The notes under the pieces are model-generated. The model worked only from the letters and a program-made list of their open reading frames with translations, was not told where the DNA came from and searched no databases. This document shows, piece after piece, positions 6,973 to 49,236 of a stretch of 64,000 nucleotides of DNA; the first letter of the stretch is position 1; every line of letters starts with the position of its first letter. The DNA lies in the NCBI GenBank assembly GCA_965655095.1, contig OZ296659.1:4154001-4218000 (forward strand), in the 5' to 3' direction. Made by a program: the position numbers and the translations under genes. The stretch comes from Haplodiscus bocki. Its lineage: Eukaryota.

Positions 6973-7115
6973 ATCATTACAAACAAAATATACCGCTAAT
7001 AAAATGATGTCGCATATTTAAATCGCCAATGAAATGCTTCCCCTTCCCTAATTTACTTCACCGCTATGTGGCAATGCCAGAACCCCTTGTAGAAGATATT
7101 GAGTTCAGTACTCAC

Positions 7116-8544
7116 GTTCAGGAGAAAATTCGACAGGAGAAGGTGACGACTTGGAAGACTGCGCGCTTTGCTGCGATTGCGGAGTTGAGGGCACACCCAT
7201 GGAGGGGTTCTGTTTGTTGCTGCCGAACCAGCCAACTCCGCCGGTGACCGGTGAATCAGCCGATTTTAATTCTGATTGGCTAGTTGGTTGCGACTGGCCC
7301 TCACTTAAAAGCTGCGACGTTGTTCTGTTGGAAAGTGCCCCATACGGACCCCGGCGTGAAGACTTATTCGTGACATCATCGGTCGATTCCTCTCTTTGCA
7401 TGCTATTTTGAGACACGCAGGGTGCACTCATTTGTCGGTAACATGAAGACTGATCTTTTTCCGTTTTTAACAGTAAGTTATGTTCGCTGCTTATTTGCGG
7501 TGGTGGCGGCTGTCGATGCGATGTTAACGAGTCAAAAGAACTTCGTTCAGAAGACGTTGAGTCAAAATTTCGCTGTGGAGGAGGCCAATTCGGAGAATGC
7601 TGAATGCCGCCGCTGCTAGAGGGAGGGAGATAAGGAGCACCTGTTGAATGGCCCCCAGAAACCACTAATTGACTTGGAGATGACTGAGGGTGGGCAGGTT
7701 GTTGGAACCTAGGGCGTGCGGCAGGAGATGCTTCTTGTTGCATGTTGACAGGAAAATATTGCATCGTATTGGTGACACTACTTCTATTTTGTGCCGTGTT
7801 TCTCTGCGGGATCCTAACAACCGATGGAACACCGCACACATTCGAATGCTGGCTGTTGAAATTAACGGGCACGCCGTGTTGACCTAAACTTTGAGCAAGA
7901 CCAATGCCCGCCGCAGTAACATTTGGAGGCGAGACGCCTAAAAATTGATAAGTTGTTGTCTGATCATCATACAGGTAAAAAGATGCGAGATGAGACCCAC
8001 CACTGGCGGCTCCGGTTTTGGGAGGCGGAACAAAATTCGACTGCTGTTGTTGATGTCTAGTGGTTAAACCCGGATGTTGTATCGCAACCGGGGAACACCC
8101 TTGCATGTTTTGAGATGATGCAGGCATCTGCTGTGGCGTTACCTGAACAAGACCTCCTTTGTGGGTGCCACCAGCGGGGGCAGTGCGGATGAAAGGCACG
8201 GGAGCCGTGGCGACGGGAGCTGCGGATATCATGGATGACCCGCTGCCACCGTTCTCATGTCCTGCTCCTCCACCGCCACCGTCCCCATTTTTGCTGGCGG
8301 GAATCATACCGTTCATTGACCTTGAAATGACGTCACTTGTGGCCAATGCAGAACCAGAACAAGAGGAGAAGGCGGAGTTGTTTTTTGCGCTTTCCGCCCC
8401 AGGGGGTACCAAGACAATACGTCCCGTGGGTAAGCTACTGCAATGGGGGATTACAGTTTGTATTGAATATGAGATGCTTTTCGACTTTGGTGTCAACGAA
8501 GAATGGGCGGCTGGTTGCAAAATAACTTGTGACGTCGAGAGCAT
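7116..8544 (-). CDS. Large coding exon of a host gene; Ser/Gln/Pro/Gly-rich, probably disordered N-terminal region; product unidentified
   Basis: 479-codon open frame, GC-richer than its flanks. ATG at 8544 with in-frame stops upstream. Canonical donor C|GTGAGT at 7115 just before the ORF's stop, so the gene continues in downstream exons not identified here. Confidence 0.8.
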
Positions 8545-10460
8545 TGCAATGTTGTCTCAAACAATGTCGAGGACAGAACAAGAAGAGCATGGCTGCCACA
8601 TTATAGATCAAGGAGGGCGGCAACAGTGAATGTGTATTACCTGCAATCACTGACAGGTAATATTGAATGACGTTACTTTACGTTAGCAGAAAGAAGGAAG
8701 GTGGTATGATGAGACAATAAATAACCAATAAATAAGGTTCTTGTGCTGCCGCCTCTAATCAAAAAGTGAGGTGGAATTCATCAATTTAATTTGCGAATGG
8801 GCAATAGAGGCAAAATAGATACATTTAAAGGGAAAGAATGATGAGATTAGGTATCAATGCAACATGCCATCTTTCTAGCTTTGGTATATAAAAACTAAGA
8901 TCGAGCACAAAGAAAATCAACTAGAATAGTTAGAATCAAATCATCAAATCAAATCAATTACTAGTTTTCTATTCTGAGATGGACTACTGTTTTAATAATA
9001 ATAACAGTATTAGTAATAGCAGCGACGACGGTTGCAAACGGTGTATTAATCTTTGTTCAGATCGTCGGCGGCGGGCGACAAGTGTCAAGATATAAAGCAG
9101 TGCTGAAGACGGGCAAAGGGCTTCAAAACAATACAATTGAACCATCGGCTCAACATACTTGTAACGAAAGAAGAGGGGTAAAGTAACATTTTCTGGCTCT
9201 CCTAAGAAAAACAATTCCAGCCGCACTTCTATTCTACCGACAGTCTTGGCTTCTTCCGAAAGCAGCAATAGCACCAATACTAGTAATCTACATCAGCAGT
9301 AGTAGGAGTGTATTACTAATAACTGCAATGGCAATAGTAAGAAATAATTTTCCCGCTTCCAACCCTTTTTTGCATTCATCCAGGCTGTAATCGAGGACGA
9401 CTATACAAGGATAGTGGCGGCGGCGGGAGCGCAGACAGCGGAGCTCTCCAACTCAAAGATGACGGTAAAGACAATGCAGGGGTGCACCAAGACGAGTTAT
9501 TGCCGGTTACAGAAGTGCTACAGAAGAAGTAACCGGTGTAAATGCTTCAGTTGGTGTGGCTTTAACAGAGAAAGATATAAGGACAACAGGGGTTAGGCAA
9601 TAAAGAATGGAAGCAAGTTAGAGACTGGACTACAACTACTACTTCTAATTCTTATCCATCTTGTTCCAGAATTCAGTGCCCAGCCCAGGCGAAAGAGGGA
9701 GGAGTCGAGGGGTTGCTTAAAATATTGAACCAGTAAACACTACGTAAGTAACATCAAGACAACATTCCGCAACAAGAGATCGTACCCATCTTTTGTGCAG
9801 TTATTATAGTCTTAGTCTTGCGCAACATTCCAGCACTAAAAGGGTACAAAAGAATAATCAAAAACAGCGAGGATCTCAGCGAAATCTAAATAAAAACTGG
9901 TATTGGTAGTCTCAAAACCCTTGGGTCGCGCAGTCATTCCAGCAGCGCCACTTCTCGGGAGGTTCCCAAGGTTGAAGTGTACATCCTTTGATGAAGATAA
10001 ACAACAAAACAAACGGCTGAATAATTTTTTCTCAGTAGCATTATCATGATCACTGTGGTATTTGATTGTTAAGACTCCGGAAGTCGAAGCTACTAAATTG
10101 ATTGGGACTGCTACTTCTGCTTGGCCGGCAGTACATATTAGAACGGAGGCAGAGCAAAAAGATAAATGCAGATTGGTTCATTGCCACCGCCAGCCGCCGC
10201 ATCAACAAATAACTAATGCACTTCTTTCGTCCCACTTTTTTTAACTCGCTTTCCCACAATTAACATCTGAAAAGACAAACGCAACTTGTATGCTGTTTTA
10301 ATTCCTATCCATAGACAACGCTGATCATTCATTATTAACAACACATGCAGAGCAGTAGGCAGATGTAACAACAAAAAATGTTTCACATTAATCAAAATCC
10401 TGGCCGTACTTATATTGTTTCGTGGTAGAAATTGTTAAAGAAGAAGTAAAGTATAGAGAC

Positions 10461-30250: not shown

Positions 30251-31067
30251 CATTCAACACCGGAAACGATACCTTTCTCAAACCTAACAAATCGACAGGT
30301 AGTGGGCTCGATTCCCAGAGTTAGCCATAAACTATTATTGCGAAATATCTTAACTTGCAACTAAAATATCATAGTTGTAAATGATCGCCACTCATTTTTA
30401 AATCTGTAAGACAAATTATTCATTCAGTAGCCATTTTTTTCTTCAGTCTATTTTTGCTACGGGTTCAAATCCAACATTTACCAAAAAAACTTTCATTTAT
30501 TAGTACGATTTCGAATTATGAGGATTTCTGCTCGTATAAAAAATCTAGTTGGTGCTTTATGAAATAAAATGCTGACTTTTGTAGGTACTTTGTTTTTTGA
30601 AATATGGTTACCTCCAAGATTACCACGAATTTGCACATTTTCCCTTAAATGCTCACCCCGGCAAAAGTTTTTGAAGCATGCAAATGCAGTCTATGCCGAC
30701 CACAGGCAAGTACTCATAAACACAAAAAACCCTTCCACGTAAGTTTTCGGCACTGAGACAAAAAATTCTCGATGAAAAATCGTTATACCCCCTCTTAAGC
30801 CTTTCGATACCAAAAACCTTCAGAAACACAGCAGCGTTCCCCTACGAAATTTTTCGATCCTGTCAGATAAAAAAATTGTTGAAAAACGTTGATACCCGTT
30901 TGCTTGGTTTTTTGCTCCCGTAAGCTTTCAGAAACACACTATTAAATAGTGTGTTTTCAGATTGAAATTGCAAGGGCAGCCGTGGTGGCCCTTTTATTGT
31001 CTCACATATACTTCCAAAGACACCTTAGGGTTTCAACGGAAGTCCTGCTCGTCTTATCTGGCCATCA

Positions 31068-31695
31068 ATGAGATTTCACGTCTACTACGAAGCTGACAGT
31101 GAGCATTTGTTGATATCTGACTCGCAGATACACAGCGAGAAGAACAAGACCTGCCTCAACAGTAGAGTTGTGAACGTAGTGTCTCTACCAGGTGGCAAGA
31201 TTCGACACGTCTACGACTTTCTTCCCCCTCAAAGGAAATACAAGTCAGCATCGCTGTTCATTGGTGGCAACGAACTGTTTCGTAAAGGGCGGAGCCTTGT
31301 CTGAACAGTCACCCCAACAGATAGATGAAGACCTGAAGACACTCACCGACACGATAGTCCCCAGAACCGGGCTGGTCCACGTAATCGGCATCCCCGAGCG
31401 CCACAACAAAAAAGAACGGACAGCCGAAATCAACGAGATACTCGAGCGCTTCAGTACCAAGGCAGACTGGAAGTACAGAAGTGTGTCGAAGTACATCTGG
31501 TCCCGCCATATCTCTGGAGACTCTGTCCATCTCACTGACGAGGGCCTCAAAAACCTGAAAAAACTTCTGAAAGAGAAGATTCTGTACAAGCTGTACGATT
31601 TTGAACAGGACAAGAAAGGACCTCGGAAAGTCACCGTTTGCGGAAACGCCAAGCAGCCAGATTGTCTCTGCGGACACTTCAACCCCCCGAGTTAG
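31068..31695 (+). pseudogene. SGNH/GDSL esterase ORF of LINE A (about 208 aa after removing one +1 frameshift near 31285)
   Basis: Blocks in order: LLISDSQ (I, catalytic Ser), SLPGG (II), FIGGNELF (III), DSVHLTDEG (V, DxxH); joins ORFs 31068-31304 and 31192-31695. Confidence 0.8.
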
Positions 31696-31909: not shown

Positions 31910-32788
31910 ATGACCAACTGCAAATCCTGTAATCTCAAAGTCGGGTCACCAAAGAATGCATTCGTATGCTACTTTTGTGGCTATAGTATGCACATGAACC
32001 AAACGTGCACAGGATTCGAAGAAGACCAAATCAAGGTTCTGGTAGAACTGAAGCAAAACCTGTTAATGGTGTGCAACGATTGCAAAAGCAAAAAGTCACA
32101 AGCCCCCAGTAACACTGCTGCCGTTAAGAACAACAACAATGACCTAGCAGCAAATGTAAAAACCCTTGAGAAACGAATGAGCGACTTCCTTCTATCTATG
32201 GAGAACTCAGCAGCAGCAGCTGAAGACCTCAAAACAGAAGTGGCTAACATGAAGAAACCTGCAACCGAGACAAACTGCACAAGAAGTTACGCAAGTGTCG
32301 TCGGAAACAAAGCCCCAGGAAAAAGAGTCTATAAACCAGCAAAAGATAGCCTGGGTATACGCATCAAAGGTCTCCCTGAACCAGAAGATGGCAAGGAAGA
32401 CAAACTGAAGGACCGAGAAAAGGTCAAAAGGATCCTAGACCATCTGGACATTCGCTCATCGCTAACAAAGCTCACCCGAGTTGGACAGCCAAATCCAGGC
32501 AAAGGGCCCCACACTGTCACTATCGACCTAGACAACGATCTTGAAAAAGAGGTCATGATAAAGTCGGCACACAAACTAAAGACATTCACTGAACTCAACA
32601 GCACGATCTTCATCGGTCACGAACTGACAAGGGAAGATATGGCAAAAAAAAACAAGGCTCTCAAACTGAGGAGAAACCTCATCAAAAAGGGAGTAGTCTA
32701 TCAAACCTTGAGAATTCGAAAATTGAAGCTCCAACAACTAGTCAAAGGTGTCTGGGCAACTGTCTCGACAGTTGAAGAGAACAAATGA
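31910..32788 (+). CDS. LINE A ORF1p: PHD finger, coiled coil, RRM-like/CTD region
   Basis: Intact 292 aa; CKSC..CYFC..H..C..CNDC (C4HC3 PHD); heptad region; SYASVV and IRIKGLPE motifs typical of CR1/L2 ORF1. Confidence 0.85.
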   Translation: MTNCKSCNLKVGSPKNAFVCYFCGYSMHMNQTCTGFEEDQIKVLVELKQNLLMVCNDCKSKKSQAPSNTAAVKNNNNDLAANVKTLEKRMSDFLLSMENSAAAAEDLKTEVANMKKPATETNCTRSYASVVGNKAPGKRVYKPAKDSLGIRIKGLPEPEDGKEDKLKDREKVKRILDHLDIRSSLTKLTRVGQPNPGKGPHTVTIDLDNDLEKEVMIKSAHKLKTFTELNSTIFIGHELTREDMAKKNKALKLRRNLIKKGVVYQTLRIRKLKLQQLVKGVWATVSTVEENK

Positions 32789-35660
32789 CTAGCTTCCGGA
32801 GAGTCAAGAACAGAAACTACAAAAACTCTGCACATTTTAACTTTCAACGTGAGAAGTATTTTCAAACTTGAAAGGCGCACTCTCTTTGCAAATGCCATCT
32901 TCACATCTGACTACGTTATGCTGTGTGTCACCGAAACTTGGCTCACAACGGATGTCCCAAACACCGCGCTCTTTCTCAAGGAATACGCAATCTACAGATC
33001 CGATAGAACCAGCTCCTCTATGATAACAATTCACGGAGGAGTCCTAGTTGCAGTAAAAAAAGTATTCCACATGAAGTCATTCCAAACGACCAGTCGGACG
33101 AGATCATTGCAGTGATGGTTAAAACCGAACAACCACTTCTAGTGTGCTGTGTGTACAACCCTCCCCACTACAGACCCTTTCGATGGCCCCGAACTAAATT
33201 TGACAACCTCTTGACTTCGCTCAAGCGTCATCAAGAACAACTGAACTGCCCAACAACAATTATCACTGGTGACATAAATTTTAGCAAGACGTCTTGGGAC
33301 TGCATGGAATCCAGGGATGATTACTAACAATCAATCCTGGATCTTTTGTGCGAACATGGATGCAGTCAACATCTCAACCAAACGTCGAAACGTCAATTAG
33401 ACGTTCTGCTTAAAAACAACGATGACGACGTTTTTGATTGCAAATTAGACAGAAAGATCTCAACAAGGTACAACGTGTCAGACCACCTCGCATACTCAAC
33501 AACAATGCACACAAAAATAGAAAGGAAATACCTAGATCCGCAACACAAGCAATATAGCCTGAAAAGGGCAGACTGGGATGCTTTTGTGGACGCCACTGAG
33601 TGTCCCCCATTCCAGCCCTACTGCTGCAGCAACGTCAATGTCCTCATACAAACATGGTACTCTTGGCTAAACAAAACCATGGATGAAAATCTTGAAAAAC
33701 TCACCGCGCACAGAGCATCACAGGCACGCTGGATATCGAAACACACATCACACCTGAAGAACATACTCCAGACCAAGAAAAGAGCGCAGAAGAATTTCAA
33801 TGTCGCACACTCAATCAAGATTAAAAGACTGGAGAAAGAGATTAAGGCTTCCTGTCAAGAAGATTTTAGAATCTACGAAGAGACTGTCTTCGCAACTCGA
33901 TTTTTTAGTCGAATCCAGAAATATCTGTCGTGCATACGCAAAAGCCCGCCCCGGCCAAATGAGTTTCATTACAAGGGAAAGATCGGAAAAACAGAGTCGG
34001 AATGTGCAAGCATGTTCAACAGCTTCTTTGTTAGTGTCTTTAACTAAAAAGACACCAACTTCCAGCCCAACTACCCCCGCAAAATTCTAAACTGGTTCAG
34101 AAAAAACCAAAGAAGGGTCGAAACTCTGCTCGAAGACCTGAAAATTGGAAAATCGTCAGGATCAGATAAAATTGGGAATATCCTACTCCGAAACGCCCCC
34201 AAAGGCCTCAGCAAATCCCTGACCCTAATCTTCCAAAAAATCATCAACAAAGGGACCTACCCAAATCAATGGAAGTTCCGACAGATCTGCCCAGTTTTCA
34301 AAGATGGCGACAAGAAAGACGTTACGTGCTACAGGCCCATAAGCCTACTGAGTTGCATCTCAAAAGTACTCGAGAGAATCATATTCGATGAAATTTATCC
34401 TCTAGTTCTAGAAAAACTGCACAGGAAGCAGTTTGGTTTCCGAAAGAAGAGGTCAGCCACCCTCCAACTGCTTTTGTTCCTGGACCGGATATACAAATAC
34501 AATGACGACAATGATGTAGAAATTCTAAGTGTCCTGTACCTAGACTTCTCCAAAGCATTTGACACCGTCCCGCACTCCAGACTCCTCGATAAGGTCTAGA
34601 ACTTCAGCATTGGTGGAAAGCTCCTCAAACTGGTCCACAGCTACCTATCAGATCGCAAACAGGTTGTTAAAATTCGGAACACATTATCAACGCCCCTAGC
34701 GGTAACAAGCGGAGTCCCCCAAGGCTCCATTCTCGGCCCCCTCCTTTTTCTAATGTTCATTAACGACCTCCCGGAAAGATTCGCAGAATGTTTTGGCTAC
34801 GCAGACGATTATAAACTCATCTTCACGCAACAAGAAGAATTGGAGAACGGTACCAAACAACTTGAAGAATGGTGTGAGCTGAACGAAATGAAACTCAACG
34901 AGAAAAAGTGTAGCTTATTAGTTATAAAGGGCGGCATGCCTGCCCAGTTGAATAATGTTAGCATCAATCAACCATCAGTTCAAAGGGATCTCGGTCTTTT
35001 TGTGGAGAACGGTCTGGGATGGAAAGAAAACTGTTCAAGACGCTCGGCAAACGCCCTCAAGGCCCTTTTCAAAATCCAACGCAAGGTTACAAAGAAATGC
35101 AATATTCAAAACAAGATCCATGCCTACACAGGGTACGTAATGCCAATACTAACGTATGCATCGCAAGCGTATAACCCCAGCATCGGGTCATTGAAAAAAC
35201 TTGAAAAAGTTCAGAAACAAGCCACAGCCTGGTTCTATGGATACGACATCAGCTACAAATGCAGACTTATTAAAAGCAAACTGTTACCGGTATCTCTGTA
35301 CATAGAGCTTCACAACGTTCTCTTCCTACTAGACCTTCTGGAACAGAAGATGGACATCGAAAACAGTGAAATATTGTCTGTGAGACCCTGCTCGAACACC
35401 AGGCAGGGCGATTGGAATGAAATGGTCGTAACGTCGACGAGGACGAAGAAAGCTGATGAAAACTTCGTAATCCGCGCCAGTCAACTGTACAACATCCTCT
35501 CTCCCACATGAAGCAACTTAATAAACCTATGGACAAAGAACACCTACTTGAAGCTTACTGGAAGTTCTTTCTAGATCAGTACAACGAGAAGGTATCCTGC
35601 ACATGACGTATACTTTGCCTCTGTGGCTACCGCAACCCCCAAGGCAAATTAAAATTACCT
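32789..35660 (+). pseudogene. LINE A ORF2: APE endonuclease plus reverse transcriptase, disrupted
   Basis: TFNVRS, VTETWL, HGGVL, VYNPP, TGDIN, SDH (APE); YRPISLL, QFGFR, YLDFSKAFDTVPH, GVPQGSILGP, YADD (RT); several stops and frameshifts. Confidence 0.92.
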
Positions 35661-35738
35661 TGATGACTACCAGAGCCAAACAAAAAGCAAACAAATCAGG
35701 GATGGAAGATTTCCCATGGGAAGAAGGCCCAGAGGTCA

Positions 35739-35739
<1 letters not shown>

Positions 35740-35812
<73 letters not shown>

Positions 35813-35825
35813 TACTACTACTACT
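35740..35825 (+). repeat. (CTA/TAC)n microsatellite, 3' tail of LINE A
   Basis: Directly visible, about 28 units, immediately after the ORF2 end and short 3' UTR. Confidence 0.95.
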
Positions 35826-36639
35826 AAAGGGCCACCTCACGAATTTTTTCGTCAGACTGAAAGTTTCCGACATTTTTGTTGATACCCTCCTATGGTTCAC
35901 CGAAGCTTCTGCGCTGGACAAAGGAGTACCGTCGATATCGAAGTGTTCTCAGGTTCTTTTGCTTTCAGTCAAAAATTTTTTGAAAAAAGTGACTTCAGTT
36001 GTGCAGTTTTGTTACCTTTTCCCGGAGTTTCGGTATGTCAAGCAGGCTTAGTATTGCAGACTCATTAGCCTCTTTTAAAAAACATATATGCAGCGTCATG
36101 GCAAATAGGTATACCCAACTAAGAACTCACCAATTTCGCCATCTGCTTTTATGTTTCTTGAACCCTTTGTACAGTTTCCTTTCTTCTTTTTCCACTTTTT
36201 TTTCGATTTAGTTTGGGGTTTTTCTGTTTTCAGAAAGAATCCTTTTTTCGAACAACATGAATCAACTAGAAACCTTCCGGAGTTGAGAAAAATTTCAAAA
36301 AAATGGATCATTCAATAGTTTTTATTCACACCAATTTTATATCCCTCAATTTATAAAATGAATTCAGTTTTAAAACTTCGAATCATTATCCCTGAAAAGA
36401 TTCCTCGAGTACCTGTGTACTGCTTTCCCATCTGCTCCCGGAACATCCAAAAAGGACCCCGTTAACAATTTCTCGTGAACGCGTGGTTGTGTACACTTAC
36501 ATTTTCCTAAGAGGCAGACCAGGTTTGAAAAATATATAAGAATTACCATTCTTGATACTCAGAGTTATTTTCCTCTCAAACGACCGTCTGGACTTCTTCC
36601 ATGAAGGCCACAATCAACAAGTTTCCACCTGTAGAAAAT

Positions 36640-39600
36640 CTAATCACCGAGCATTGTTTGACAAAGCTTCGACTGAAACGATACGTTCTGACCTTGGGAC
36701 GGAGGTCATTATAGAAGATTGTCGACGTCTCGGAAAGTTTTTTCCAGGCAAAAGCCGAACAGTATTGGTTACTTTCCGCAATAACTGGGATGGACGGAAA
36801 TTTCGAGGCAAGGTTATCGGGCAACATTTGTATCGTCACAAAGGAGTAATGATTGTTCCAGAATTTTCATATGAAGATCGTCAAGTTGAGAAAAAAATTC
36901 TCAAAAAACGATTTGAACTGATTATTCAGGGGACTGAAAAATCCAGGATTAGAATCCGAGACCTGAAACTTTACGTCGATGGCCAGTTTGTTGCCTCCGA
37001 TTCACTACAGCTCTCAATAATAGGTCTTAACTGTCGTTCTTTAGACTCGATTAATAAGCGGTTTCAACTCACAAACTTTCTTTCGAATTATATGTCCGAC
37101 ATAGCTTGCTTATCGGAATCTTGGCTAGATAAAGACTTATGTGACAACATTTCCCTCAATACCCATTACATTACTGAAGCTCGCGCTGATCGTGAAAATG
37201 GAACACATGGTGGGGTGGTAATTTTTGTGCAAAAGTCGTCTGCTCTACGAAACTATTTCATTATCCTGCGAATACGCATGTGCAATCAATACATGTCTCA
37301 ATTACGTGATAATTTTCATTATTTGTATATACAACCCAACAAAAATGAGCCCATTCAAAGTAAATTGGAATATAATAACAGAACGATATTGTTGCTTCTT
37401 AAAACATAACCCAAATGCCATGATAATTATAACTGGTGATCTCAACCAGCCTGCTGTTGATTGGAACTCCTTTAGCACCAATGATGCCGAGTTTGAAAGG
37501 TTTTTAGACCTGATGGTTACCCATTCATTGATTCAGCTAATTAACTCTTCAACGCACAAATCCGGCAATATCCTTGATGTTCTAATCAGCAATTTGCCTG
37601 AGCTGTCCTCACCGCCTAAACACAATATTCCTGTTTGCTTATCTGATCATTACGCTATTTCTGCTATATTGTATTCGCATCCAGCACAGTTGACAACTCT
37701 TTTTCGCCATTTGTATATCGTATTCCTTTCCACTCATTCGCAGATATTGGTTCTGCATTGGTGTCAAGCTTCTTCTCAGTTAGTATCAGAACGTCCGGTG
37801 AAGATTACGTATCCTCCTGGTTTCAACAATTCGAAAGTAATGTTTATCAATTCCTTGAAAGGAAACTCAAAAAGCGCGTAGAATTACCTTGGTTCTATAC
37901 GTCTCATGTTCACCTTCATAACAAACTCAAGACTGCTTCCAACTGCAATTGTCCTGAAACGTGCAAAAACACCAGAGAAGACCTTTCAATGTCCATCGAG
38001 CTCAAAACAGTTACCTTTCTTGACAATTTCGTTAAAAAGAAAGGGGGAATTACTGCATGCTACAGCCTTTTGAGTAAACTTGGTGGCCCACTGATCCCAA
38101 CGGAAATGGTGTACAACGATACGAAAATCTCTGGATATGAATATATTGCAAATAAATTCAATGGTTTCTTTATTGGTATGTACAGCGCATCTGCTGCAAC
38201 CGATCTTGATTTTAATGAACGTGAACTTAATTCTGTGTTTTTCGAATTGGACAACGTCAACGAAGAATTCATGACTGCATCTTTAGGTACAGGTATTGAC
38301 TTGATCCCTGGCCTCCTCCTGAGACATACGTCAAGTTCTCTTTCCTTTCATGTATTGAAACTGTTTGAAGCAAGTGTAGAGTCCTCTGTTTATCCTCTGT
38401 CATGGAAACGGGCAGTTATTACACCTGTCTGTAAATCTGGGAATAAATCCTTGTTAGTATCCTACCGTCGCATTAGTATTCTTCCAAAACTATCCCTAGT
38501 TTCCGAAAAGCTCCTATTCAAGTTTCTATAAACTATTAATAAAAATCAGCTGTCAAACTACCAATTAGGTTTTAGGAAGGGGTGTTCTACTGTTACTCAG
38601 CTTCTGCTTTTTCCTAATGAACTATATACCAATTTAGATAACGGTAAAATCTCCCAATGCTTTTATCTTGACTTTAGTAAGGCGTTCGACAAGGTACCTC
38701 ATTCAATTCTCCTTCACAAACTGAGTCTATTTGGCATTGGTGGTACTCTATTGCGTCTACTCTCATCGTATCTTTCAAATCGAGTGCAATGTGTTAAAGT
38801 AGGCCAGTTCTACTCCAGATGGGAAACGATTGCAAGTGGGGTTCCTCAAGGATCAGTGTTAGGTCCCCTTTTATTTCTTGTGTTTATGAATGACTTGCCG
38901 TCAGTATGTCTTTCTTCAATCATGTTTCTCTATGCAGATGACAACGAAGCAACTAACACGATTTTGAAAAACCTGCAGCTAGACCTCAATGCATGCGTTT
39001 CCTGGGCAGAGCACAATCTCATGGAGTTCGATGCTTCCAAAACTGAATTTATTGCAATTGGAGTAACCTCCGAGAAACTCTTGAAATTCGGGGGAATATC
39101 AGTATCGCCTTCTAATGTAGTAAACGAAGTGGGAGTTATGGTCAGTGATAACCTGAAATGGGAAAAACACATCTCGAAATGTATATCTTTCTGTTATTCT
39201 CTTCTTTCACGGCTCCGTCGAAATTTGCCACCTAACCTACCTTTCTCTACTAAACTCACTATGTACAAGGCGTACATTCTGTCTTCACTCTTATATGCTT
39301 CAGAAGTCTGGCATCCGACCTCTGGTGACTTACAGAAACTGGAGTTGGTTCAGAAACGAGGTTGCAAATGGATATGTAACGGTAACGACTATAAGCATTG
39401 TTTAGTGAAGTGTAGCTTACTACCTATCTTGTGTGTGCTCCAATACAAAGATTTAATCATGCTCAATCGGGTTCTGTTGGGATTATACAATTTTGCAGTC
39501 AACGACTCATTCCACTTCGAGTACAAAAGTCGCTGCCTCAAAAGTTCAGCTAGACCAACATTTGTTGTAAAAAAGTTATCTAGGAAAACAACTTGGAGTA

Positions 39601-39832
39601 ACTTTATGATTCGTAGTACCACATACATTAATGATCTACACAGAAAAACTGCACTGAGTGTGTTTGAAGATGCCGCCTACTTTCGTAAAAAATTGAGACT
39701 TTGTTTCTTTGAGTTTGTGAAAGGTAAATTTGATAATTATCAATTCATGAGTTTATTTTGTTTGTAATATCTAGTGCCTTAAACGTAATAATTCTTCTTC
39801 CTTCCTTCCTTCCCTCCTTCCTTCCTTTCTTT
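36640..39832 (+). mobile_element. 5'-truncated CR1-group LINE (copy B): ORF1 C-terminus fused in frame to disrupted ORF2; (CTTC)n tail
   Basis: ORF1 RRLGKF..RTVLVTF..W..IRIRDLKLYVDG runs into GLNCRS, LSESWL, HGGVV; then TGDLNQP, LSDH, YLDFSKAFDKVPH, GVPQGSVLGP, YADD; tail at 39793-39832. Confidence 0.9.
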
Positions 39833-39879
39833 ATCCAAGTAAATTGGCTTGAAGCTGTATTAGAGACAAGGATCAATAA

Positions 39880-40550
39880 TGCCAAAAAACAAAAGGGAGA
39901 TAACTTTCTAAATCGAAGTTCAAACCGAATTTTCTTCAAAACTACCTGCTCATTTTCATCTATCAATGTCCTCCTCAACTACAGTCACACTGTCAAACGG
40001 TTTTCAGTGAGTAATTTTTTGCGATTTGATTTTTCCAATAGAAACCACTTCAACCGCAAATAGCAAGAACTGAGTTTACGTATGATCAACCTTGATAACC
40101 AGTCTAATTTTCCTTCGAAACTACCAGTTAAAACCCTTCGATCAATGTCTCAATCGACCGTCTCCATGTTGAAATATCCTTCAGCAACAGAATCTTCAAA
40201 ATTGGTTTTTGTATCGGAACCGGTATGAATGGAGTTAGCTGAAAAGTAAGCACAGGAATGATATTTCTCGCAAATCAAACCTAATTTTTACCAAAACTTT
40301 TGGAAACGTCTCTTCAATCAATGTCTCAGTCGACGTTTTTGTACTTGTATGTTGCTGTTCGACTGCCAAGTTTGTGTTTGGTTCTAGAAAACTGACACTT
40401 GATACGGAGAATGTCGAGGAGTGTATAATTTTGGGAATCAGTATCTTTAAACAGACTCGAATCTTTTCAGAGGAAACTCGATTTCTTCTATCATGGTCTC
40501 AATCAACAATCTTCTCTCTACAAAACATCGTCCGAAGTTATTAGTCATGA
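39880..40550 (+). repeat. Degenerate tandem repeat, about 177-bp period, about 4 units
   Basis: atcaatgtctcaatcgac-like anchor at about 39962, 40141, 40317, 40490. Confidence 0.6.
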
Positions 40551-42574
40551 AAGATGTTTCCAGATCGCAAATCTCAAGGACCGATAGAGCGAAAATGTGG
40601 AAGTTTTCCGACTTTTCGTGAGGACAAAGCTGCTTTTCTCAAAAACCAGTTGTTTCATTTCTTCCATCAAGGTTTCAGTCGACTACGTTACTGCCCTCAA
40701 AATCATATGGGAATGTCAGTTGTTGCGCTTGGTTTCTGACAATGCAAATTTGATAGGCGTAAAATGCCAAAAGTTGTATGTCCCTATGAATTGTCTTTAA
40801 AAAACTTTGATTCTTTTCTAAATAGATAGCCGAGTGATTTTCTCCTATCGAGGTCCTAATCAAAAAATGTGCAACTGTAGAGCATCTCTGAGCAACATCA
40901 TTTCGGGGAATTTTTTTTACATAGGAACTTTCAACGATCGAAAATGCGAGAAAGTGCAAAAGTTTTCGATATACACTGAGAAACAAACCGTTTGTTCTCC
41001 AAATCTAGTGGCTGCAATTCGTCCATTAGGAAAACAACTTTTCTACTCACTAAAAGCTCCTTGACTGCAAAAAAATGCATTTAATTCCTTGCAACGGACA
41101 GCTGATGGGCGAAACTAGCCAAAAATGAATATTGGTCTGAATCGTCTGATCTTCAAACTCGCTTTTCTTCGAAGCAACGGTCAAGATATTTTCGGTCAAG
41201 GACTCAATCAACAATCGTGTTTTTGTACAAGATGATTCAATTATCATATTCTCCTTTTTCATTCTTTCCTGGAGATTTTGATAACCTTAATTTGCCAGAA
41301 GTTATGAAAATGTCTGATGCTTCTTTGTATTAGAACCAAATTTTCCCCAGAGGTACCGGCCATCAAGAGTTTCTTTTTTTCCATCAAGACAATGTATAAG
41401 TTTTGAATAGTTTTGAAAAGTGAGAACTCGAAGTTTGTTGCTTCCAGCGGAAGCTGGTTGGCTGAGACTTATAAAACTTGCATATGCATAGGGTTCCTTG
41501 TGAGTTTTCAACTCATCTCTCCAAAACTACCGACAGGACTCCTTCCACCGGGGTCTCAGTGGACAATTTAAATAGTTTTTGAGGTTACTCGATGAACCTT
41601 TTCCGAAAAATTTTTCCCACCGTTGTAATCTTTGGGGCTGATTTTGACAAAAGTGCGAACTGTGGTGGTTTTTCTTTATAGTCAAACTCACTTTCTTTAG
41701 AAGCACTGGTTGGATTTCCATTATCAAGATAAACAGCGTCCTTACTAAATTAATGAGTTGGCTGAAAAGGTTGCAAATTCTCCATCACTGCTGCTCCTCA
41801 GAAACTCTCAAACTCGATTTTAGTTTAATCAGCGCTAGATGGGCTCAATATAAAGCCAGTTTCAAGTTTTCAAAAGGTGATTCAGACAAATACTCGAGTT
41901 TAGTACTTCGCTTCGAAGGCCTGGTGAGTCGATAATGCCAAAAATTTTCGAAATCAGTGATGGAATTGTTGTTTGTGGAAAACTAGACTCACAACAGTAC
42001 CCTTGTTTTCAAAAGTTGATTGAAAACTTTGTAATTGAGCAAAAAAATGCCGGTGCGAGCCGGCCGTCTTGCTTTCCAATGTGTTATTCGTCAAAAGTTT
42101 TTTCCATTGACTGGTATTTGTACTGAGCCCATCTAGCCCTGATTAAACTTGAATCGAGTTCGAGAGTTTCTGACGAGCAGCGGTGATGGAGAAATTGCAA
42201 CTTTTTCAATCAGTTTTTTTATTTTTGGTAAGGACGCTGACTATTGTGGTGACTTTTTCGGATGACATAGCTGATGCAATTCGTAAACTTTTTTCTAATT
42301 TAATTTCTTTAATGTTACTATAATATTCATAAAAAGAGACGTAAGTACTGCAGCCATTATTTGTGGCAAAAACATTAGGGACTCCCTGATGAAGTATGGG
42401 CATCCAGAAAAACAGGCGTTACCACGTTGCACGTAGCAGTGCCTCCTTACAGTGTCAAAAACGGTCCCATATGTGTAAATTGGTAATGAGTCACTATTTT
42501 AGTTATATTGTGGGGCTTCAATTCAATGTTGTAGCTCTGGCAATTTTCACATGAGAGCAGGAGCACAATGAGCT

Positions 42575-43050
42575 CGTAAAAAGCCCCACTGCATGGATTG
42601 CGGACATGACCTTCGAATCGTGGTAGGAAGAGATTGATTCATGAGTCGCAGTGAGCGATTTGGAAAAGGAGCAACAACCGCCAGCCGTGACGTTGACATT
42701 GGACTATCAGAAGCGAGAGGTCGGGAAAGAACTTAGTTTGCAGGAGTTGAATGCAAAAGAAGATGGTTTGACCAAACTTCTGACAAAGCTCAAAGCCACA
42801 TTTGGTACGGAGGCCGTCGACGTGGCGTTCCACGTAACTTTTGAGTCAATACGACGTTCAGATGGTGTTGACATGAGTCCATACATTCTAGATTTCAAAA
42901 GGGCGCATGCCAGATTTGGAAACCCAATATGACAGTTCCTGACAGTGTCTTAAAACGCAAGTTACTGTTTTCCTTGAAAATCGATGCCAAAGAGCGAATG
43001 ATGGTACTTGCGAAAACGCAAACTCGAGTGCAGTATAATGAAGTTCTCAC
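42575..43050 (+). pseudogene. Ty1/copia (GalEa-like) gag relic
   Basis: TFESW*EEIDS*VAVSDLEKEQQPPAV...DGLTKLLTKLKATF...FESIRR...MSPYILDF...MTVPDSVLKRKLL resembles the gag of marine-invertebrate GalEa copia elements. Confidence 0.6.
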
Positions 43051-43149
43051 TGAAACGAATTTTCAACGATACTCCAAGCACTCTGCTAGATCAGCTAGAT
43101 CGTTTCGGTGGTGAATTGGATTACTTATTTGCGTTATTAGTGTCAAAGT

Positions 43150-46100
43150 AAAGTTGTTCTTCTCTTTCTCCCCAGTGCCTTCCTAGGCACTACTGGAGAT
43201 TGCAGTCTTATAGTTTTATCAATTGAATCCTTCTGAAATTGGTGAACATGGACCCAACAGATTTACCTCGACAACGACTAGACTCCCACTCCAAAGACTA
43301 CTTCCCCAGGGTCGCTGACATCCTGGCAAATGACGATGAAGCTGTGAAAAAACATTTAAAGTAGATGAACGAAGATTCCGTCCTGTGTGTTTTCCGTGAA
43401 ATTCTATCACAATTTCGCAAATCTAAAAAAAACGAACAATAAGTTGCTGAATTCAAAGAATAAGATGAGTGCCTTGGCGAAACAAGTTCAAGAACCTAAT
43501 GAAAACTCCGTTGAAACAATTCAAGTTACTGTACTCTCTGTTATGACAAGTGCACAGTCACAGCAAACTGCTGCCACAACTGCCCCCATCCAAAACAAAC
43601 CTGTCAAAAACCAAAATTTGTACCAGGTACGCATAGATGGTATACCTGAATCAAAATCAAACAAACGTGCAGAAATTGACCAAGACGAGGTAAAAGAATA
43701 AAACGAGGTTCTGAACTTCCTTGAAGGAACGACACCTACCGAATCGTTACCTCGAAGGCTTGGAAAAACACGACCTGATGATAACGCTCGACCGCGTAAC
43801 TTGCTTCTCACTCTGAAGTCCATTTGGGACGCTGGCAAATTAATATCCAAATCAAATAAATTGAAAGACTACGCTGGCAGAACTATCTATTCATCTCGGG
43901 GACTGACGGATGACGAAATAAACAATAACACAATTCTCCGTAAACGACGTGAGCTTGTAGAAAAAAGTGTAGAGTGGAGCAAGATAAAGATCAGATCCCT
44001 TAAACTCTTCATAGATTCAATAGAAATGGAAGAGGACACAAACCAAGTCTCCGAATGACTAACTTTAATAAACATTCTGGTACTAAATGCCCGAAGCCTT
44101 CTACGTTTTAAACGACGTCAAGCTTTTCCCAATGCCATCCTTATTTCTAATCCAAAAATTTCATTTGTGACTGAGACTTGGCTCACAACCAATTTCTCTT
44201 CATCCGAAATTTTCCTTCCACGATACACAATAATACGAGCAGAACGCACTGTTAATATTTCCTCGTCATGGCACGGAGGTGTCCTTATTGGAATATCATC
44301 TGAATTCAATTTTACAGGGCATGACTTGTCTCAGTTCCCCTCGACATTTAGCGAATCTTTCCTTTGGGTCTCCATAACAATTCAAGATAGTGATTTTAAC
44401 ATCTGTTGTCTTTACAAACTCCCTGCCGATAGCAAGTATCGTATTACTAAGAACGAACCTAATGACCTTTTTCAGCTTATTAGCATTACAAAACCCCATC
44501 AAATTTCTTATATTGTTGGAGATCTCAACCTCCCGAACATGGACTGGGAATCTCTTGGTAGCCCAGACGAATATGAAAACAAAATTGCTCAGAGTTTTTC
44601 ACTTTTATATTGGACACAACTAATTGACTTTCTTACTGTGGGAAAGAATACGTTAGACGTCGTCATCACAAACTCACCCGAATTAGTAATTTGTCTGAAA
44701 ATTTCAGAAGCTTTCAACCGCTTTGTATCAACTGACAACCGTTACTAATTTGACCACATTCCACTCTTGATTGACGTAACTTGTAAAAAAGAGGATGCAT
44801 CAAAAACCAGCATATTAAAAGCGTTCAGTTTGTGTCGTGGTGAATATTCTCTTCTACGAAACCTCATGACTGAAACCCCCTTCAACCCAAACTGCTATAG
44901 TAACATAGACGTAATGGTCGACGAATGGTATTCCTGGTTACTTGATCTTATTCAGAAAAGCGTCCGAATCAGAACAAAGCACCTACAGTCCTTACCACCT
45001 TGGATTAGTCCTTCAACATCCAACCTTATGAAAAGAAAAGAAACTGCGATAAAGAAACTGAATCGTGGCGTCCCTCCCTCACCAGATTTAATACTCAAAG
45101 TAAAAAACCTTTCGCAGAAGTTAGAAGGAGCAGTAACCACCGATAAAAGAGAATACGAAATATCGCTCTCTGACAGTCGAGATCTTGCTAAAATAATCAA
45201 ATACATCAACTTCGTTAAATCTGACGGATCAGCTCTTCCTACACTTCTAAACAATGGTAAAAGCGTTTTCACCGATAGACAGAAGGCTGACCTCCTTAAC
45301 GAAGACCTTGTATCTGTCTTTGTAAATCCAAATGGTGCTGACTCAAACCATACAAACACAATCCTCTCACAGACATGTGCTATCAGCAATTACTGCATCG
45401 AGAAAACTACGATTGCCAAAAATGGCAAAGATCTCAACACCAGAAAGAGTCGAGGACCCGATATTGTGCCGCCATTTTTTTATAAAGGGACAGCGGAGGC
45501 AATATCTTCTTCTTTACACAACACCTTGAAAAACATCAAGCGTCTTGGCAAGTACCCGACGAAACAGAAAAATGGAATTGTTTTTCCCAGATTCAAAAAA
45601 GGCAGCAAAACAGAGGTAGAAAAAATCCGACCTGTAACATTGCTGGATATTGCTTGCAAAATCCATGAGAGACGTATATACATTCCACTATATAATCATT
45701 TCACAAAGTTTGTGTCATCACAGCAATTTGGCTTTCAGTCCCGTGAAACAACCTCTATTTAACTTTTAACCTGCCTCCATCTTATTCATTTTGATAACGA
45801 CAACAGCAAAAAAACCTAATAGTCTTCGACTTTGCCAAGGCATTCAATAAAGTAAACCACAAGTTTCTTGTAACCAAACTATCATCACATGGAGTGCAAA
45901 AATCTATAATAGCAGTTATCACAGAATTTTTACAAAATCGACGCCAGGCCGTCAGAATCAATGATCAAGTTCCTCGTTTGCACGCTGTCAGTGGTGTTCC
46001 TCAAGGGTCACTTCTCGGACACCTAATTTTTCTTATTTTCATCAACGATTTAACTGATTCAATCTTCTTTCCGACTGCATACCTCTTCGCGGATGACCTA

Positions 46101-47017
46101 AAACTCTGTATTTCGACAAGTGAATCAGAGAGACTAGATCTTAGTCGAGACATCGAAGCAAATATGGAATGGATTTCGACAAACCAAATGCAATTAAACA
46201 TATCCAAATGTCAGTTCCTCCCGCTTTTATCTTCGCGTCATGAACCAATTGCACTGGATACAATAACTCTTTCTCGCCGAATAAACGATCTAGGCCTAAA
46301 AAAAAGAGTCGAACCTTAACTGGGAAACACATAAAATATTCTATTAAAAAAGCAAACAGAGCATATCAAATTGTTCGACGAAATTTCTCATCATCTCTGC
46401 CACCCAGAAGCAAACTAAATGTTTGTAAAACCTCTATACAACCTATAATTTGCTATGCCAACCAAAGCTGATGTCCATCAAAAAGTAGTGTTTTCGAACT
46501 CGAAAATTTCCATCAAAGGATAATGACATGGATTCTGCCATCCCACGATTACCAGTCCGCGTTAATTATATTAAAAGTCTTACATCTGCCTTACTATATG
46601 GTGCTAATGGACTGTCTAACATTATCCCGGATAATCAACGATTATGAACTAAATTGGCGAAGCCTCTGCAAACTAAATCAGTCAACATCCACTACAAATA
46701 CTAGAGATACCTTATTCCATCTGCACACTATCACTAAAGAGTCCCAGCGAAGCGACTTCTTTCACAGAACCTGCAAAATAGTAAACAGAATGGATAAACA
46801 TGTGAATATCAAGGACACTCGAGGACTAAAAGGCAGACTCTTGAAATGTTTATGGAAATTTTACAACGACCATTATGATATCAACAACACTTGCACGTGG
46901 TACCCAAACTCTGGTTGTGTGTCATGCAAGCTGAACCCTAAATAATTTTATTTTTTGACTTAAACATTCAATGGGATCACTCCCATTGTCAAATCCATAT
47001 TAATAACGATGATAAAA
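43150..47017 (+). mobile_element. CR1-group LINE (copy C): ORF1 about 43330-44058, ORF2 44059-46945, disrupted
   Basis: ORF1 VRIDGIPES, RLGK, RPRNLLLTL..WD, IKIRSLKLFID; ORF2 VLNARS, VTETWL, HGGVL, VGDLNLP, RPVTLL, QFGFQ, DFAKAFNKVNH, GVPQGSLLG, FADDLK; short AAT-rich tail near 46998-47017; 5' boundary approximate. Confidence 0.9.
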
Positions 47018-47029
47018 ATTTTCCATGGC

Positions 47030-48177
47030 AGTGGCTATTCTGGCCCTTCTCGTTGATCGTCAGGGCAAAAAGAAAACAATCTTGGATGTAGACGGGGCCT
47101 GATCTCCTTTGTATGCAAAAACAAGCAGCTGGAAGTTGCCATTTTCCACATATAGTTTCCCTTGTTTTTTTCGCCGCATATGTAATACGAAAGAAAAATT
47201 ATTCATTCAGTACAGTGGGCCAAATTTCTTTTTCTTTCAGTGCAAAACTGCCAACTCTTTTTATTCAAAATTAAATGACAGCAGTAGGGTTAGGAAATCA
47301 GCAATCGCAAGCAGTAGGTGTAGGGTTCGAGTCTCTGTCGCGCCAAAAACTTCTACGATTTATCCCTAACATTTTTTCGATAACCGAATTTATTGAATTA
47401 CTGATGAACTCACCTACGAACTTTTTCGGGACTGTGAAACAAGAAAATTTCGACAGAATATCTTGATGCTTCCTCCCTCCCCCCCCCCCCTCTTATCCAA
47501 ACTTTTTCAGTACCCGAAATTAATGCAACAGTAAAAGATTCCCTACGGAGAATTTTGGCACTGAGACAAAAAATTTTCGATGGAAAATTTTGATGCTCCC
47601 CTCCCCCCTCTTGTACAAAAACTTTTTCGCTACCGGAATTTTTCTGAAACACAGCACAGAAGGGTTCCTCTACGAAATTTTTTGGTATTGTGAGACAACA
47701 TTTTTGACGGAAAATCGTGATACCTTTTCGCATAAAGTACAGAAATCAGTGGTCAAATTGATGTTTGTAAAAAGTCTTTGAAAACTAATATCAAAACGGT
47801 AGTGTTTCAACCGTTTGCAAAAGTTGATCAAAATATTTGTAACTGGGCGAAAAATATGCTGGTGCTAGCCGGCCGTCTTTTTGAAATTTCAGCTGTTCAT
47901 GAAATTTAATTCTTCCGTACAAGACTTTGCGGGTGGATTGGATATTTTAATGTCGAAGTACGTCCTGCAAAATCTGGAGTCCCAGAGACCGCTTGCTTGG
48001 CTATCGAGGCGAGCTTCATATTCAGTACATGTTGATTTGTGATCGACGGATTCGCTTTCCAATGCGTGGAGTTTTGGCTCTACTTCGAGGTCATAGCAAA
48101 CGTGTCATGATTTTTGCAAATGTATCACGTCGTCGCATGTGGGTGTAACCTCCATTACCACAATGCAGGGAATGAGT
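47030..48177 (-). pseudogene. CRE-clade non-LTR retrotransposon relic (zinc knuckle plus restriction-like endonuclease), in two pieces: 47880-48177 and 47030-47160
   Basis: HSLHCGNGGYTHMR..RDTFAKIM / VCYDLEVEPKL..EARLDSQASGLWDSRFCRTYFDIKISNP, continuing after the insertion as YVENGNFQLLVFAYKG; matches the HALxCxxGG..RH..RD..EP..RxDI...FDV...VE..F.PLVF...G pattern of CRE RLE domains. Confidence 0.75.
47163..47879 (+). mobile_element. Non-autonomous Helitron-like element with a B-box-like segment and about 3 internal subrepeats of roughly 125 bp
   Basis: Colinear with the inverted copy at 48178-49236; ends in a GC-rich hairpin-like motif plus cgtctt; no TSD seen. Confidence 0.6.
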
Positions 48178-49236
48178 AACAAGACGGCCGGCTAGCACCG
48201 GCATTTTTTTCGCCCAACTACAAGTGTTTTGATCAACTGCAAACGGTTAAAAACAAAACTACTGTTTTGATATTAGTTTTCAAAGAGTTTTTACAAACAT
48301 CAATTCGACCACTAATTTCTGTACTTTATGCAAAATGGTATCACGATTTTCCGCTGAAAAGTTTTTGTCTCACAGTGCCGAAAACTTTCGTCGAGGAACC
48401 TTTCTGTTTCAGAATCTCTATCTCTCTATCTCTGGTATCGAAAAATGTTAGAGATAAGAGAGGGGGCGCGTATCACGTTTTTCCGTCAAAATTGTTTCGT
48501 CTCACAGTACCGAAAAACTTCGTAGGGGAGCCCTTCAGTGTTTCAGAAACTTTCTGGTATCGGAAAATTTTATGCTTCAGAAGGTTATGTCACGATTTTC
48601 CGTCGAAATTTTTTTCTCACAGTACCGAATCATTTCGTAGAGGAACCCTTTTCTACTTCAGAAAGTTTCGGGTATCGGAGAACTTTATGCCTAAGAAGGG
48701 AATATCACCATTTTCAATAGAAATTTTTTTGTCTCACAGTGCCGAAAATTTCCGCAGGAGAATCCTTTAGTGTTTTATTAATTTCGAGTATCGAAAATTT
48801 TCTGCTTAAGATGGTTATGTCACAATTTTCTGTCGAAAATTTTTTGTCTCACAGTGCCGAAAACTTTCGGAGGGGATTCCTTTAGTGTTTCATTAATTTC
48901 GGGTATCGAAAAAGTTTAGATAAGAGGGGGGGGGGGAGTATCAAGATTTTCCGTGGAATATTTTTTGTCTCACAGTGCCGAAACTTTTCGTAGGGGAACC
49001 CTTTAGTGTTTCACTAATTCCGGTATTCGAAAAATGTTAGGGATAAATCGAAAAATATTTGGCACGACAGTGACTCGAACCTCGAACCTACTGCTTGAGA
49101 ACCTTGTTGTCCTAAGACTACTGCTGTCATTTATTTTTGAATAAGAAGAGTTGGCTTTTTTGGTCTGAAAGAAAAAAACGAACCTACTGAATGAATAATT
49201 TTTCTTGCATATTACATAGGCGGCGAAAAATAACAA
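48178..49236 (-). mobile_element. Second copy of the same family, inverted, with about 6 tandem subrepeats of roughly 120 bp
   Basis: tctcacagt anchors at about 48367, 48500, 48615, 48733, 48847, 48968; terminus aacaagacggccggctagcaccggc. Confidence 0.65.

Follow-up and report, generated by a model that had tools for sequence, protein, structure and literature searches.

The 64,000-nucleotide (nt) stretch analysed here, hereafter the window, was taken from Haplodiscus bocki (GenBank assembly GCA_965655095.1, contig OZ296659.1, positions 4,154,001 to 4,218,000 of the forward strand). It contains three divergent long interspersed elements (LINEs), designated A, B and C, in which the first open reading frame (ORF1) meets the endonuclease and reverse transcriptase (RT) frame (ORF2) in phase at a TGA CTA junction or its remnant. 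Across the genome, 30 of 31 families carried one in-frame TGA followed by C at this position, and judged from the sequences the junction is a real, strongly conserved recoding signal. These observations supported the proposal of a preliminary description of the window, namely that ORF2 is probably produced by programmed readthrough of the UGA codon as an ORF1-ORF2 fusion.

The junction in LINEs A, B and C

In LINE A, ORF1 ended in AAA TGA (32786-32788) followed by CTA G, and the same frame ran into the endonuclease. LINE C showed the same arrangement, with GAA TGA (44056-44058) followed by CTA A, and in LINE B the corresponding site read GAT TCA CTA CAG (TCA at 37002-37004), so that ORF1 was open into the endonuclease. 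No in-frame ATG was present upstream of the conserved endonuclease Asn codon in any of the three elements. These details of the preliminary description were all verified.

Since the window copies were all decayed, with stops and frameshifts in ORF2, other copies in the genome were used to establish the state of each family. Among the copies spanning the junction, TGA was found in 17/18 for LINE A (TGA CTA in 14/18) and in 17/18 for LINE B (TGA CTA in 16/18; five more loci did not span the junction), and TGA CTA was found in 20/21 for LINE C (two more loci did not span it). The TCA was private to the window copy of LINE B, the only one of the 18 to carry it. The TGA CTA junction of the three LINEs is thus not a product of chance.

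Survey of the junction across the genome

The 1.5 Gb genome was searched blind to the junction, using two Pfam endonuclease models and two ORF1 C-terminal proteins as queries, and each search scored the best 150 of 1,114-1,902 candidates. The sample comprised 120 loci returned by the searches and 100 further stretches hand-picked for diversity. Loci with both ORF1 and endonuclease matches were grouped into families by the DNA of their endonuclease starts, with a threshold of 75% identity, which yielded 177 distinct copies in 31 clusters; one cluster, a stray copy of another, was removed and locus L130, from the Pfam search, was added, leaving the total at 31 families.

Such a tabulation of frame, stop codon and following bases had been proposed in the preliminary description, and its outcome agreed with the claim made there. 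Among the 31 families with L1-type ORF1, 30 had a single in-frame TGA followed by C, located 27-78 nt upstream of the endonuclease Asn codon. The codon after TGA was CTA in 26 families, CAA-CTA or CAA-CCA in two, CTC in one and CCA in one. The two families with CAA fitted CAR-YYA: F07 showed TGA CAA CTA, in register in 9/10 copies, and F29 showed TGA in 18/20 copies, TGG in 2/20 and CAA CCA in 15/20. Extra copies were checked for family F15, which had mostly TGA CTC, and for the old family F12, which had mostly TGA CTA or CAA. No Met preceded the Asn in 25/30 families. Of 10 representatives whose ORF2 was long and open, seven had their first Met only after the conserved ETW-motif Glu; annotation of ORF2 from its first Met truncates these endonucleases.

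Outside this genome, a metagenome contig with 95% protein identity to family F22 carried the identical TGA CTA GAC; the single metagenome scan made yielded two close F22 relatives and nothing further. Many CR1-like homologues in databases had a Met start just upstream of the Asn. Other LINE groups of the H. bocki genome lacked this layout, some having ORF2s that start at Met and others carrying 2A-like motifs. The latter were single-ORF LINEs (L074, L084, L140, L150, L151 and L153) in which a zinc finger and the endonuclease are preceded by GIEANPGP, GIEQNPGP or DIHPNPGP, motifs that we take to be 2A sequences and that agree with the motif described for 2A-bearing LINEs.

Conservation of the hexamer against its flanks

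In the 30 family representatives, only positions +1 to +6 were conserved, and no column elsewhere exceeded 0.5 bits. While positions +1 to +3 were TGA by choice of the representatives, C occupied +4 in 30/30, T occupied +5 in 27 and A occupied +6 in 29. Of the extended context UGA-CUA(G) given in the preliminary description, the TGA-CTA part was therefore conserved and the G was not, since G stood at +7 in only 10/30 families. The divergence of linkers and flanking proteins noted there was borne out, with 9-10% identity between families for the six residues on each side of the junction and a median identity of 33% for the endonuclease N-termini. Because the spacing between the junction Leu and the Asn varied from 8 to 25 codons, the Leu does not represent a protein column.

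As to background frequencies, CTA accounted for 13.9% of the codons used for Leu in long ORF2s, and it followed 8/1032 other TGA triplets in ORF2 bodies. The terminal stops of ORF2 in 10 apparently full-length families were TAA in five, TAG in three and TGA in two, and CTA came next in none. The hexamer has thus been retained while its flanks were randomised. A weak bias that may reflect composition was also seen upstream of the stop, with A at -2 in 18/30 representatives and hardly any G at -2 or -1.

Readthrough signals and proposed mechanism

Readthrough at type I and type II signals amounts to roughly 1-10% in other eukaryotes. In-frame UGA followed by CUA, found in 26/31 families, constitutes the type II signal (UGA-CUA/CGG) and stop-CAR-YYA the type I signal; a stimulatory structure is conditional for the former and unneeded for the latter (PMC13517186). 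In fungi and HeLa cells, UGA-CU is sufficient by itself (PMC4207609). The presence of UGA-CUA, CARYYA and UGA-CUC at one functional position points to leaky termination.

Under programmed readthrough, most ribosomes would stop at the UGA and release ORF1p, and a few percent would insert an amino acid and continue into the endonuclease and RT, so that a high ORF1p:ORF2p ratio would be fixed by the rarity of the event. In the fusion, the enzyme would be physically linked to an ORF1 subunit, and this subunit could enter trimers of ORF1p on the element's own RNA. A Pfam search found no protease domain, and hence the fusion would likely stay intact.

Several points weigh against this interpretation. 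The 30 families are related and do not represent 30 independent events, so nominal probabilities overstate the case; the representatives were picked as TGA-showing copies, and F25, F27 and F30 are single decayed copies. An in-frame ATG lies 1-8 codons upstream of the Asn in five of the 30 families (F12, F16, F23, F28 and F29), which could reinitiate there, and the missing AUG in the remainder is not decisive, since initiation at human L1 ORF2 is described as AUG-independent (PMC5009743). Finally, the 3' stem-loop that the preliminary description suggested looking for gave no signal in 90-nt windows from +7 in the 30 families (mean z +0.21, 0/30 below -2); the corresponding z values for the window copies were 0.14, 1.05 and -0.85.

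No RNA data set was listed as carrying family F08. Three raw RNA runs gave zero reads on locus L157, which bears neither way, and no variant fell at the stop among the listed variants of one run over the contig. Ten database proteins with Trp at the junction (P0060, P0124, P0126, P0127, P0136, P0174, P0246, P0250, P0257 and P0274) were rejected as evidence of natural fusions. P0124 matched locus L008 over 500 residues except for Trp in place of TGA and is a gene-caller artefact, and the ten hint only at TGA followed by Leu (nine) or Gln (one).

Alternative explanations

The main rival is termination followed by reinitiation, either without AUG at the CUA or a nearby codon, as in L1, or at the nearby AUG of the five families named above, which would give a separate ORF2p. 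Besides L1, the UAAUG coupling of SART1 provides a precedent. However, reinitiation leaves the invariant TGA, the invariant +4 C and the CARYYA alternatives unexplained. An AUGA overlap occurred in 7/30 families only, and what it opens is not ORF2 but a -1 frame of 7-28 codons; the coupling of SART1 needs a downstream structure, none of which was detected at these junctions. We thus regard reinitiation as improbable.

The same fusion could arise with no readthrough by the ribosome if adenosine-to-inosine editing converted UGA to UGG (Trp) in part of the transcripts. Such editing would accord with a stop that is always TGA and with the TGG in F29, as expected of retrotransposed edited RNA, and the stop-spanning window, one of 10 windows tried, was slightly more stable than shuffles (mean z -0.54, 6/30 below -2). 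Nevertheless, no conserved duplex was found. New insertions arise by copying of the element RNA, yet TGG occurred in 0/57 junction-spanning copies of LINEs A, B and C. CTA and CARYYA act as signals for readthrough and, to our knowledge, not for editing. Editing is accordingly a very unlikely explanation.

Still less credible is that ORF2 has a transcript of its own for which the hexamer acts as a splicing or DNA-level signal (a branch point TGACTAAC, an acceptor TAG or a promoter element). Both extensions were limited to a minority of families, TGACTAAC to 2/30 and TGACTAG to 10/30, and a signal of this kind would not have to be in frame with ORF1 and ORF2 alike, as the hexamer is in 30 families with linkers of 27-78 nt. 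Equally implausible, and largely refuted, is decoding of UGA as selenocysteine or as a sense codon of the nuclear code; the constant TGA and the database proteins with Trp (P0124 being an artefact) would suit it, whereas the 3' untranslated regions (UTRs), 35-71 nt in 9/10 readable copies and 213 nt in one, are mostly too short for a selenocysteine insertion sequence, a simple pattern of which had no match in the 10 readable UTRs (an 11th was masked), and ORF2s of more than 900 codons are open without TGA and use TGG (151/13,107 codons), two apparently full-length ones ending in TGA.

A candidate -1 frameshift in family F26

Family F26 (five copies) was the sole family of the 31 without an in-frame TGA. 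In 4/5 copies its ORF2 lay in the -1 frame and had about 60 nt in common with the 3' end of ORF1. At the site of the relatives' GAT TGA CTA it read GAT TCA AAA AAC, and the in-phase heptamer A_AAA_AAC was intact in 3/5 copies. A 9-bp hairpin (-10.2 kcal/mol) lay about 10 nt past the heptamer, and z was about -2 against mononucleotide shuffles in three of the four copies that were folded. A_AAA_AAC is among the most shift-prone heptamers (PMC5009743). Heptamers of the X_XXY_YYZ type were found by chance in 3/30 other families, and F26 is accordingly presented only as a candidate for -1 frameshifting, which would yield the same ORF1-ORF2 fusion.

Lineages and type of ORF1

The single RRM and the CTD of ORF1 matched human L1 ORF1p (2yko) in a hidden Markov model comparison (E 2e-6); the ORF1 model had a predicted local distance difference test score of 89.5, and its top 10 Foldseek matches were L1 ORF1p, with a template modelling score of about 0.42. 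A PHD finger scored above the Pfam cut-off in the ORF1 of L157, and PHD is present in some families. The ORF1 is therefore of type II, an L1-like coiled coil-RRM-CTD protein with an optional PHD, in the class of Metcalfe and Casane (2014).

The preliminary description had assigned the junction to a single CR1-group lineage, and this part of it did not hold. In the RT trees, most junction families formed one clade (Shimodaira-Hasegawa-like approximate likelihood ratio support 93-97; 93-95 for the main clade of 11 rows in the tree used for the test below), and F07 and F16+F20 fell outside it. An approximately unbiased test rejected a single clade of junction families (p = 0.001, 14 rows against 24), as run on a quick LG+G4 tree with the long RTE-like row left out and chosen once the tree was known. 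The RT trees were quick trees on reference proteins without names, and P0113 was absent for lack of an RT match. The label CR1/L2 group is used provisionally here, after the domain layout and motifs.

On these trees, the junction occupies at least two RT branches. As the families are split across the RT tree, the junction is ancient, arose convergently or travelled with ORF1; exchange of ORF1 between CR1 and L2 lineages has been proposed (PMC4120745). We tentatively suggest, with a little less than even confidence, that in a wide range of CR1/L2-group LINEs the endonuclease and RT are made as a Gag-Pol-like ORF1-ORF2 fusion that co-assembles in ORF1p trimers. In this wider proposal the fusion itself would be selected, through interchangeable UGA-CUA, UGA-CARYYA and -1 frameshift signals, a module of ORF1 and leaky stop would have moved between RT lineages, and the arrangement would be a general, overlooked route to ORF2 beyond this genome.

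Comparison with known systems

How ORF2 is translated from bicistronic LINE RNA is a long-open question that has been solved only for L1 and SART1, in both cases as reinitiation. Human L1 and Bombyx SART1 resemble the present elements in being bicistronic, and the RRM-CTD of L1 ORF1p is matched by the ORF1 described here. In contrast, they make a separate ORF2p, L1 across a 63-nt spacer and SART1 at a UAAUG overlap, and the junctions described here have no spacer and usually no AUG (PMC5972666, PMC10275272, PMC5009743, PMC3708506).

The preliminary description knew of no such mechanism in LINEs. In the literature accessible to us, we found no LINE for which a UGA-CUA or CARYYA readthrough junction had been reported, though Repbase reports, subscription journals and supplements (for example, that of PMC4120745) may hold some; the terms stop codon, readthrough and in-frame are all absent from PMC13343379, as is the word "retrotransposon" from PMC13517186. 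Readthrough itself has already been suggested, from sequence, for the non-LTR (long terminal repeat) Group 3 of Paramecium tetraurelia, in which 12 consensus elements were listed with an "in-frame stop" (Guerin et al., 2017, PMC5405496). Those elements likewise are LINEs with APE and RT whose ORF1 and ORF2 stand in frame over one stop, and their sister groups frameshift. They differ in belonging to a separate ciliate clade, in their zinc-finger ORF1 and in their junctions, three of which, read by eye, were TGA TTC, TGA GTG and TGA GTG, with no CUA or CARYYA; we found no discussion of a motif in that work. What is described here is probably a known mechanism, in an element class where it had only been suggested in passing.

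The hexamer of the 26 families is the same UGA-CUA as in Sindbis and chikungunya nsP3-nsP4, PSIV, and mammalian LDHB and MDH1 (PMC13517186, PMC4207609). The CAR-YYA of two families is shared with the type I signal of tobacco mosaic virus (TMV), although the stop is UGA here and UAG in TMV. Viral readthrough is also similar in placing the polymerase 3' of the leaky stop and, in PSIV and TMV, in being independent of structure; it differs in that the present elements are nuclear non-LTR retrotransposons known from sequence alone, in which an alphavirus-like stem-loop was not detected. As in gag-UAG-pol of Moloney murine leukaemia virus (PMC5009743, PMC13517186), a structural RNA-binding protein would be made in excess and the enzyme as a minor C-terminal fusion. 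That virus, however, uses UAG, a pseudoknot and a polyprotein protease, in contrast to UGA-CUA with no structure or protease domain detected. Lastly, the 2A-bearing APE LINEs Ingi, CR1, L2 and Rex1 (Odon et al., 2013, PMC3708506) offer a further case of translational recoding in CR1-group LINEs, at a site immediately 5' of the APE domain; 2A splits the product of one ORF, whereas readthrough would join two.

The convergence of about 30 diverged families on textbook readthrough signals predicts an ORF1-ORF2 fusion enzyme. Such an enzyme would provide a simple physical basis for loading onto its own RNA, and the fidelity of host termination would be expected to control transposition.

Organisation of the window

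The coordinates of the elements are summarised in Table 1. As in APE-type non-LTR retrotransposons, ORF2 has an N-terminal APE endonuclease followed by RT, there are no LTRs, and the 3' end is a simple repeat. RT pieces were detected in the window, and Pfam identified PF03372/PF14529 and PF00078 on loci L130 and L135. In other families, short tandem repeats followed 3' UTRs of 35-213 nt.

Table 1. Coordinates of the LINE features in the window and of the F26 loci elsewhere in the genome.
Feature	Position	Strand	Remarks
LINE A upstream extra ORF	31180..31695 (GTAAGT to 31701)	+	SGNH/GDSL-esterase-like; broken here
LINE A ORF1	31910..32788	+	Cys-rich PHD-like N-terminus, L1-type RRM-CTD, TGA end
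LINE A junction TGA CTA	32786..32791	+	in frame, 60 nt upstream of endonuclease Asn codon (32846)
LINE A ORF2 (APE endonuclease and RT)	32789..35660, end approximate	+	decayed
LINE A 3' tail (ACT)n	35739..35826	+	
LINE B ORF1 remnant	36635..37001	+	copy 5'-truncated near 36635
LINE B junction TCA CTA	37002..37007	+	family state TGA CTA; Asn codon at 37029
LINE B ORF2	37005..39767	+	decayed
LINE B 3' tail (CTTC)n	39797..39831	+	
LINE C ORF1	43248..44058	+	decayed; element start near 43090; TGA end
LINE C junction TGA CTA	44056..44061	+	in frame, 30 nt upstream of endonuclease Asn codon (44086)
LINE C ORF2	44059..46945	+	decayed
F26 loci L277 / L327-L331	G000:C2:107203629-107204179 and four others		

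The upstream ORF of LINE A, about 221 amino acids long in other copies, is distinct from the PHD-RRM ORF1. In the L004 copy (32-697) it gave a weak Pfam match to Lipase_GDSL_2 (E 0.0013, below the cut-off), and a PDB search with it returned no meaningful match. In most copies a perfect 5' splice donor, GTAAGT, comes directly after its TAG stop.

Apart from the LINEs, a foldback-like element at 47167-49230 consisted of long inverted arms of 115-nt tandem units, and related units were also present at 30745-30903. A short element resembling a miniature inverted-repeat transposable element, with 108-nt inverted arms, was located at 41747-42224 and had ends in common with the foldback-like element. 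On the minus strand, a Ser/Gln/Pro-rich open frame of 483 codons at 7105-8556 is probably exonic sequence from a host gene.

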